DNA from: Escherichia coli O127:H6 str. E2348/69
Lineage (GTDB): Bacteria > Pseudomonadota > Gammaproteobacteria > Enterobacterales > Enterobacteriaceae
Length of the DNA: 64,000 nucleotides
NCBI RefSeq assembly: GCF_000026545.1
Contig: NC_011601.1
Direction: 5' to 3' (one strand)
The position numbers were made by a program, and so were the translations under genes. The notes beneath the pieces were generated by a model. The model was not told where the DNA came from and ran no database searches. It worked only from the letters and a program-made list of their open reading frames with translations. This document shows, piece after piece, positions 18,352-18,506 of this stretch. Position 1 is the stretch's first letter, and each line of letters starts with the position of its first letter.

Positions 18352-18506
18352 TGGGCACCTCGACAGTGGGGTTAAGAATGTCCTTACTTTACCATAGTTC
18401 TCACTTAAACGCCGAGAACAGGGTGTCATGGCTGTCACATTGCCTGATCGCATATTCGTTATGCTATAGTAGCGCCCCCAATTTACCAGATGCTTAAAAA
18501 GTCGCC

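Follow-up and report, generated by a model that had tools for sequence, protein, structure and literature searches.

An unoccupied phage attachment site in dusA and a probably ancestral zur–dusA spacer in Escherichia coli E2348/69

Integrases specific for dusA have already been described: the integrating island supplies a new dusA 5′ end and the native end is displaced (PMC4482086), while the element provides a promoter and restores the reading frame, thereby keeping DusA expressed (PMC13136901). In the DAI family (Farrugia et al. 2015, PMC4482086), as in E. coli lysogens, the attachment site has a semi-conserved core within the dusA 5′ end; integration moves the native 5′ end away, and its surrogate, together with a promoter, lies beside a divergent tyrosine integrase. 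E. coli dusA lysogens are listed in the supplement of the dusA integration paper, and K-12 is not among them (PMC4482086). The other described system that occupies this interval is the yjbL–yjbM locus of K-12 (DUF2713, PF10897), which shares with the locus studied here both its position and its flanks, namely dinF, yjbJ and zur on one side and dusA, pspG, qorA and dnaB on the other. In a gene-age study, yjbL–yjbM is tabulated among young operons without a known function; other operons of that table are marked as prophage, but this one is not. With the dusA integration system already published, and with public annotation showing that E2348/69 lacks yjbLM, the feature described below is already known in kind. 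Reading the K-12 form as a scar left by a phage adds a modest point, which concerns K-12 and not the DNA analysed here.

The locus lies in the window, by which we mean the whole stretch of 64,000 nucleotides of E. coli O127:H6 str. E2348/69 (NC_011601.1) that was analysed. In it, zur and dusA are divergent, with the zur start codon at 18351–18349 on the minus strand and the dusA ATG at 18507 on the plus strand, and the 155 bp that the initial annotation had estimated between the two starts proved to be exact, both in the sequence and in RefSeq. The RefSeq annotation of the identical E2348/69 locus agrees with the gene calls in the window, and zur has 95.2% nucleotide identity to that of K-12. 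The initial annotation had also stated that K-12 carries yjbL and yjbM between zur and dusA and had noted that both are missing here. Indeed, the gene order in MG1655 (NC_000913.3) is zur, yjbL (b4047), yjbM (b4048), dusA, pspG, qorA and dnaB, whereas the window ORF list holds no frame resembling YjbL or YjbM within the 155 bp, and BLAST finds no similarity between this spacer and the K-12 yjbL/yjbM segment, save for a 14-nt promoter motif. Alignment of the interval with MG1655, the comparison suggested at that stage, did not reveal the same short spacer there, since 1665 bp separate zur from the annotated dusA start. The features of the locus are the following:

17836–18351, minus strand: zur, zinc uptake repressor, 171 aa (ORF list; RefSeq annotation of the identical E2348/69 locus)
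18352–18506, no strand: zur–dusA intergenic spacer, exactly 155 bp (sequence and RefSeq annotation of E2348/69)
18386–18416, minus strand: conserved zur upstream block, CTCGGCGTTT (18416–18407) and then an extended −10-like TGGTAAAGT (18394–18386)
18420–18552, no strand: 133-bp segment replacing 1686 bp of K-12 (BLAST breakpoints)
18440–18478, plus strand: putative native dusA promoter, consisting of TTGCCT, a 19-nt spacer, an extended −10 and a discriminator
18507–19502, plus strand: dusA, tRNA dihydrouridine 20/20a synthase, 331 aa, with the native N-terminus (ORF list; RefSeq)
18552–18568, plus strand: putative unoccupied attachment core (attB) for dusA-specific phage integrases, ATTGCCCCGATGCTTGA (C25 lysogen, mEp460 attP)

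The difference from K-12 is a replacement with its right edge inside dusA and not a plain loss from the spacer, a point in which the initial reading needs refining. BLAST against MG1655 aligns window positions 17401–18419 at 94.0% identity and positions 18553–20000 at 96.5% identity. The 133 bp between them have as their K-12 counterpart the 1686 bp of NC_000913.3 4260071–4261756, which comprise yjbL, yjbM and the K-12 dusA leader and 5′ end; in their place, the window has the putative native promoter and the native dusA 5′ end. The two segments show no detectable similarity except for the 14-nt motif. The replacement exceeds the spacer, extending 46–62 nt into the dusA coding sequence and, because its right edge lies inside the gene, the first ~20 DusA codons differ as well. 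The K-12 reading frame starts with MHGNSEMQKINQTSAMPEKTDVHWSGRFSVAPMLDW, whereas the window DusA has a different N-terminus, without the leader and N-terminal sequence of the K-12 type (MHGNSEMQKINQTSAMPEK...); in the 105 nt that precede the core end, the nucleotide identity of the two is 57%. The left breakpoint (18419/18420) appears to be simply the end of the constrained block upstream of zur.

The divergence between the window and K-12 ends at the attachment core, which corresponds to codons 16–21 of dusA. Comparison of the window attB, the attL and attR of strain C25 and the attP of phage mEp460 gives a shared core ATTGCyCCkATGCTyGA, repeated in direct orientation at attL and attR, the mEp460 attP version being ATTGCTCCTATGCTCGA, and the core ATTGCTCCTATGCTyGA of the mEp460 and C25 attP or attR matches the window core at 14–15 of 17 positions. 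Strain C25 has window-type sequence up to 18568, followed by a 41-kb lambdoid prophage and then by a tyrosine integrase divergent from dusA, and the dusA beyond this integrase carries a K-12-like 5′ end; C25 represents an integration into a window-type site. Some other window-type genomes also match the window only to 18568. Whereas mEp460 and the C25 prophage share the core with the window, their sequence upstream of it is 82–84% identical to the K-12 dusA 5′ end and 56% identical to that of the window. By its position, its shared core and the use of this core in lysogens, the stretch 18552–18568 would be the chromosomal attB of dusA-specific integrases. This site is frequently occupied in E. 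coli, since a dusA-type integrase is found at full length in 729 of the 5426 complete E. coli genomes that made up the population set. In the window, no tyrosine integrase is adjacent and divergent to dusA, and only zur lies upstream, 155 bp off. Unlike the occupied DAI-family sites, the window has neither an integrase, nor an island, nor an att duplication: it is an empty attachment site and not an island or a prophage.

The 155 bp of the spacer seem to hold two conserved promoter blocks arranged back to back, one for zur and one for dusA. Firstly, when 20 upstream regions of zur are aligned, the block there is kept from Escherichia as far as Serratia and Yersinia; it is common to the window and K-12, and is a candidate for the zur promoter. 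Secondly, dusA is preceded by a −35-like TTGCCT (18440–18445), an extended −10 TGCTATAGT (18462–18470) and a G+C-rich discriminator AGCGCCCC (18471–18478). Across 15 enterobacterial genera, the sequence TGCTATAGTAGCGCCCC (18462–18478) shows little or no variation and keeps a constant distance to the dusA ATG; it probably represents the extended −10 and the G+C-rich discriminator of the dusA promoter. This discriminator resembles those of growth-rate-controlled promoters. A canonical sigma-70 scan (−35/−10) of positions 18250–18650 called no sites, so that both promoters are placed by their conservation only; in the case of dusA, the 19-nt spacer accounts for the failure of a simple −35/−10 scan to call it. 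A Zur-box pattern (TGTTATAWTATAACA, with at most 3 mismatches) had no match near the spacer, and its single match in the window, at 44013, is at chance level. An Rfam scan of positions 17400–20200 returned no RNA family match at E up to 1. At 18283–18302 on the plus strand, within the zur coding region and opposite to it, a hairpin with a T run after it resembles a terminator, but is probably a chance match (2 found versus 0.4 expected).

The age of the two arrangements was judged against outgroups, namely the dusA loci from 80 species. A zur–dusA spacer of 155 bp, as in the window, is also found in E. albertii and in another Escherichia species. In the 105 nt up to the core end, the window has 95% identity to the former, 90% to the latter, 75–80% to Enterobacter and Lelliottia, and ~72% to Citrobacter, an identity that falls from Escherichia to Enterobacter and Lelliottia and then to Citrobacter, as vertical descent predicts. 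The window DusA N-terminus aligns from residue 1 with those of E. albertii, Citrobacter, Enterobacter, Lelliottia, Kluyvera, and others. In the 105 nt considered above, K-12 shares 84% identity with the mEp460 attP and 82% with the attR borne by the C25 prophage, compared with 57% with the window. Moreover, the N-termini of four outgroup dusA loci adjacent to an integrase begin KMHENKE, with the integrase immediately upstream; a 5′ end of this type thus travels with the elements, and that of K-12 dusA is best read as element-derived. No YjbL or YjbM homologue was found in the zur–dusA interval of the 80 outgroup loci. On the grounds of the outgroup spacers, the graded identity, the phage-like 5′ end of K-12 and the lack of YjbL/YjbM in the outgroups, the short spacer is probably the ancestral Escherichia arrangement and not a deletion, and the K-12 form a derived addition of element origin. 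The initial annotation, which treated two genes as missing, is to be refined accordingly: there is a good likelihood that the window misses nothing, its arrangement being the ancestral one and that of K-12 the derived one.

The addition in K-12 was probably left by a dusA-integrating phage. When a phage or island integrates at the dusA core, the promoter and 5′ end of the host would be shifted in the direction of zur, and dusA would remain expressed with a promoter, leader and 5′ coding end that the element brings along. One such integration, followed by decay, would have taken place in the lineage that gave rise to K-12 and to ~79% of sequenced E. coli, leaving a phage-type leader and N-terminus on dusA (MHGNSEMQKINQTSAMPEKTDVHWSGRFSVAP); nearly all of those genomes also have a 1.46-kb AT-rich insert with an orphan DUF2713 gene. 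The promoter function and the order of these events are what we infer from the sequences compared, and the DUF2713 gene may have come with the phage. The extended −10 that K-12 keeps, TGGTATAGTACCCCGC, is similar to the native motif and also to TGTTATAGTACGCCAT, the motif of the phage; the latter overlaps the integrase start codon, and such a motif of ~17 nt is the only integrase trace in K-12. The left edge of the K-12 insert keeps a TTGCCTTGTCG remnant, and the 1.46-kb DUF2713 segment seems to have the former −35 on one side and the former −10 on the other. Neither terminal inverted repeats nor a target duplication were found at the ends of the K-12 insert, which show no transposon signature; this absence counts against the scheme of integration and decay. 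We would give about even chances to the full scheme, according to which some four-fifths of E. coli, including K-12, express DusA from the promoter-leader and with the N-terminus of a decayed dusA phage, the DUF2713 gene lies inside the former dusA promoter, and B2 strains keep the family-wide native promoter. If this is true, the regulation of dusA and the DusA N-terminus would differ systematically between K-12 and B2 pathogens through a fixed phage scar.

Alternatively, the K-12-type allele, comprising the leader, the dusA 5′ end and yjbLM, could have been imported from another bacterium by homologous recombination across zur and dusA with no phage integration, and phages would later have copied their attP flank from K-12-type hosts. 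Such an import would fit the fact that K-12 has no integrase remnant or attL: a tblastn search of the K-12 segment with the C25 integrase returned noise only (E of 1–3), and BLAST against the window detected nothing beside K-12 zur that could be a native dusA 5′ end pushed aside, two absences that oblige an origin from an integrated phage to include further deletions. It would also fit the unusual divergence in the left part of the spacer and an enterobacterial MAG (L029) in which a 5′ end of 79% similarity occurs with no integrase. N-termini beginning MHEN are moreover native in Yersinia, where zur is only ~275 bp from dusA, so that a phage-type end could descend from some host allele. However, the switch from 57% to ~96.5% identity falls at the integrase core, which is the expected signature of site-specific recombination; the nearest relatives of the K-12 5′ end are attP flanks of E. 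coli phages (84%), whereas the chromosomal outgroups, save L029, reach at most 63%; and integrase-bearing elements of other genera likewise begin KMHENKE. We consider the import unlikely and prefer the origin of the K-12 form from a decayed dusA-integrating phage.

The order of events in this phage-derived origin must also take account of a third, rare type of spacer. It occurs in two of the 5426 genomes, HH97 and HH45, measures 218 bp (L088 2934–3151 in HH97), lacks the DUF2713 gene and has flanks 99% identical to those of K-12. In this type, an intact native-like dusA promoter (29/32 nt identical to 18440–18471) is followed by a K-12/phage-type leader and 5′ end. HH97 is not a simple deletion derivative of K-12, given that 16 nt (TTGCCTGGTCGCATAT) restore a native-like promoter sequence that K-12 lacks; its form is what a recombination between the native and the phage-borne −10 in a lysogen would leave. 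The existence of this third type weighs against a settled order of events for the K-12 form.

Regarding the gene carried by the K-12 insert, yjbL and yjbM (L001 4322–5307) are halves of one DUF2713 gene, interrupted in K-12 where a run of A residues has a 1-nt frameshift, so that the two genes named in the initial annotation are to be counted as one; most E. coli have a single DUF2713 ORF of 318–338 aa. The K-12 segment has 34.8% G+C, compared with 50–53% in its flanks, and the YjbM homologues listed are all from E. coli, save one partial match labelled Klebsiella. This low G+C content, the restriction of the listed homologues to E. coli and their absence from the outgroup intervals make the insert look acquired. 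The divergence of DUF2713 within the species is unusually high: three other alleles share 45–85% amino acid identity with that of K-12, whereas the adjacent zur and dusA are ~98% identical in nucleotide sequence. No tblastn match to YjbM/DUF2713 was obtained among 50,697 genomes of isolated phages, which counts against the phage reading, and DUF2713 matches only PHROGs of unknown function, which may reflect prophage predictions overshooting into the chromosome. PADLOC defence-system models gave no match for three DUF2713 alleles. An AlphaFold2 model built on a 14-sequence alignment reached a mean pLDDT of 57.5, and a Foldseek search of the PDB with this low-confidence model found nothing at E ≤0.001.

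Among the 5426 complete E. coli genomes, the window-type 133-bp segment is present in 1122 and the K-12 (yjbLM-type) segment in 4303 (~79%), the two types together accounting for 5425. zur and dusA are contiguous as in the window in 1061 complete genomes (at least 80% of the 1667-nt query covered). Over these 1667 nt, the window locus is 100% identical to that of EPEC E2348/69 in an independent complete assembly, and the 133-bp segment is common to UTI89, ST131, ST1193, and a Nissle derivative at 98.8% identity or more. We take these strains and E2348/69 to be B2, an assignment made from the strain names only. The non-K-12 lineage proposed in the initial annotation is well borne out by these matches. 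The short spacer of E2348/69 is ordinary lineage variation, and it serves as a reliable lineage marker that identifies the window as E2348/69-like and B2-type (by strain names), and not as K-12.

The prevalence of the yjbLM form, in ~79% of complete E. coli genomes, might suggest the opposite polarity, in which the B2/E2348/69 lineage deleted yjbL–yjbM, the window being derived and K-12 ancestral; small accessory-gene deletions are common, and in HH97 the DUF2713 gene is absent from a K-12-like background. Nevertheless, no deletion from the K-12 form could yield the 133 bp, which K-12 does not have and which are 95% identical to E. albertii, with a promoter motif and N-terminal codons common to 15 other genera, and a deletion is at odds with the identical spacer length in two other Escherichia species and with the lack of a YjbL/YjbM homologue in any outgroup zur–dusA interval. 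This polarity is already largely refuted, and we hold it to be highly improbable. As for the short spacer being an assembly or reading artefact or a strain-private event, the chance is negligible, as the identical locus in the independent E2348/69 assembly and the counts of 1061 genomes with zur and dusA contiguous (at least 80% of the query) and 1122 with the 133-bp segment refute it, and nothing was found in its favour.

With the window arrangement preferred as the ancestral one, the locus illustrates that the K-12 reference does not always represent the ancestral state, since here a pathogen keeps the original zur–dusA promoter region together with an intact, empty phage site. The remnant in K-12 would, in turn, have altered the promoter context of dusA and its first ~20 codons, which bears modestly on the interpretation of dusA expression or of DusA N-terminal constructs derived from K-12. 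It also bears on predicting where dusA-targeting prophages land, including some in O157:H7 and other STEC, and on the annotation of yjbL and yjbM as one frameshifted gene.

The zur–dusA interval is variable across genera (L007–L032), and other Enterobacteriaceae hold unrelated genes there next to a native-type dusA. In Citrobacter and Enterobacter, a 162-aa protein is encoded between zur and dusA, and the Enterobacter interval additionally encodes a 436-aa signal-peptide protein, with a 438-aa homologue in MAG L029. Some neighbouring genes of the window differ as well from their described forms. The longest dinF ORF (16090–17469) encodes 459 aa, as in MG1655, while RefSeq gives 441 aa (1326 nt) for E2348/69, implying a downstream start. 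In C25, qorA and dnaB are separated by a block of five genes (L004 2937–10099) that neither the window nor K-12 has; its products are a LacI-family regulator, a CoA transferase, an enoyl-CoA hydratase, an MFS transporter, and an FAD-dependent oxidoreductase. Finally, qorA (minus strand, about 20043–21139) carries a 5-bp tandem duplication, GGTAA GGTAA, at 20289–20298 relative to K-12, and the resulting frameshift leaves two ORFs of 285 and 102 aa, the gene being annotated in RefSeq as a frameshifted pseudogene in E2348/69.
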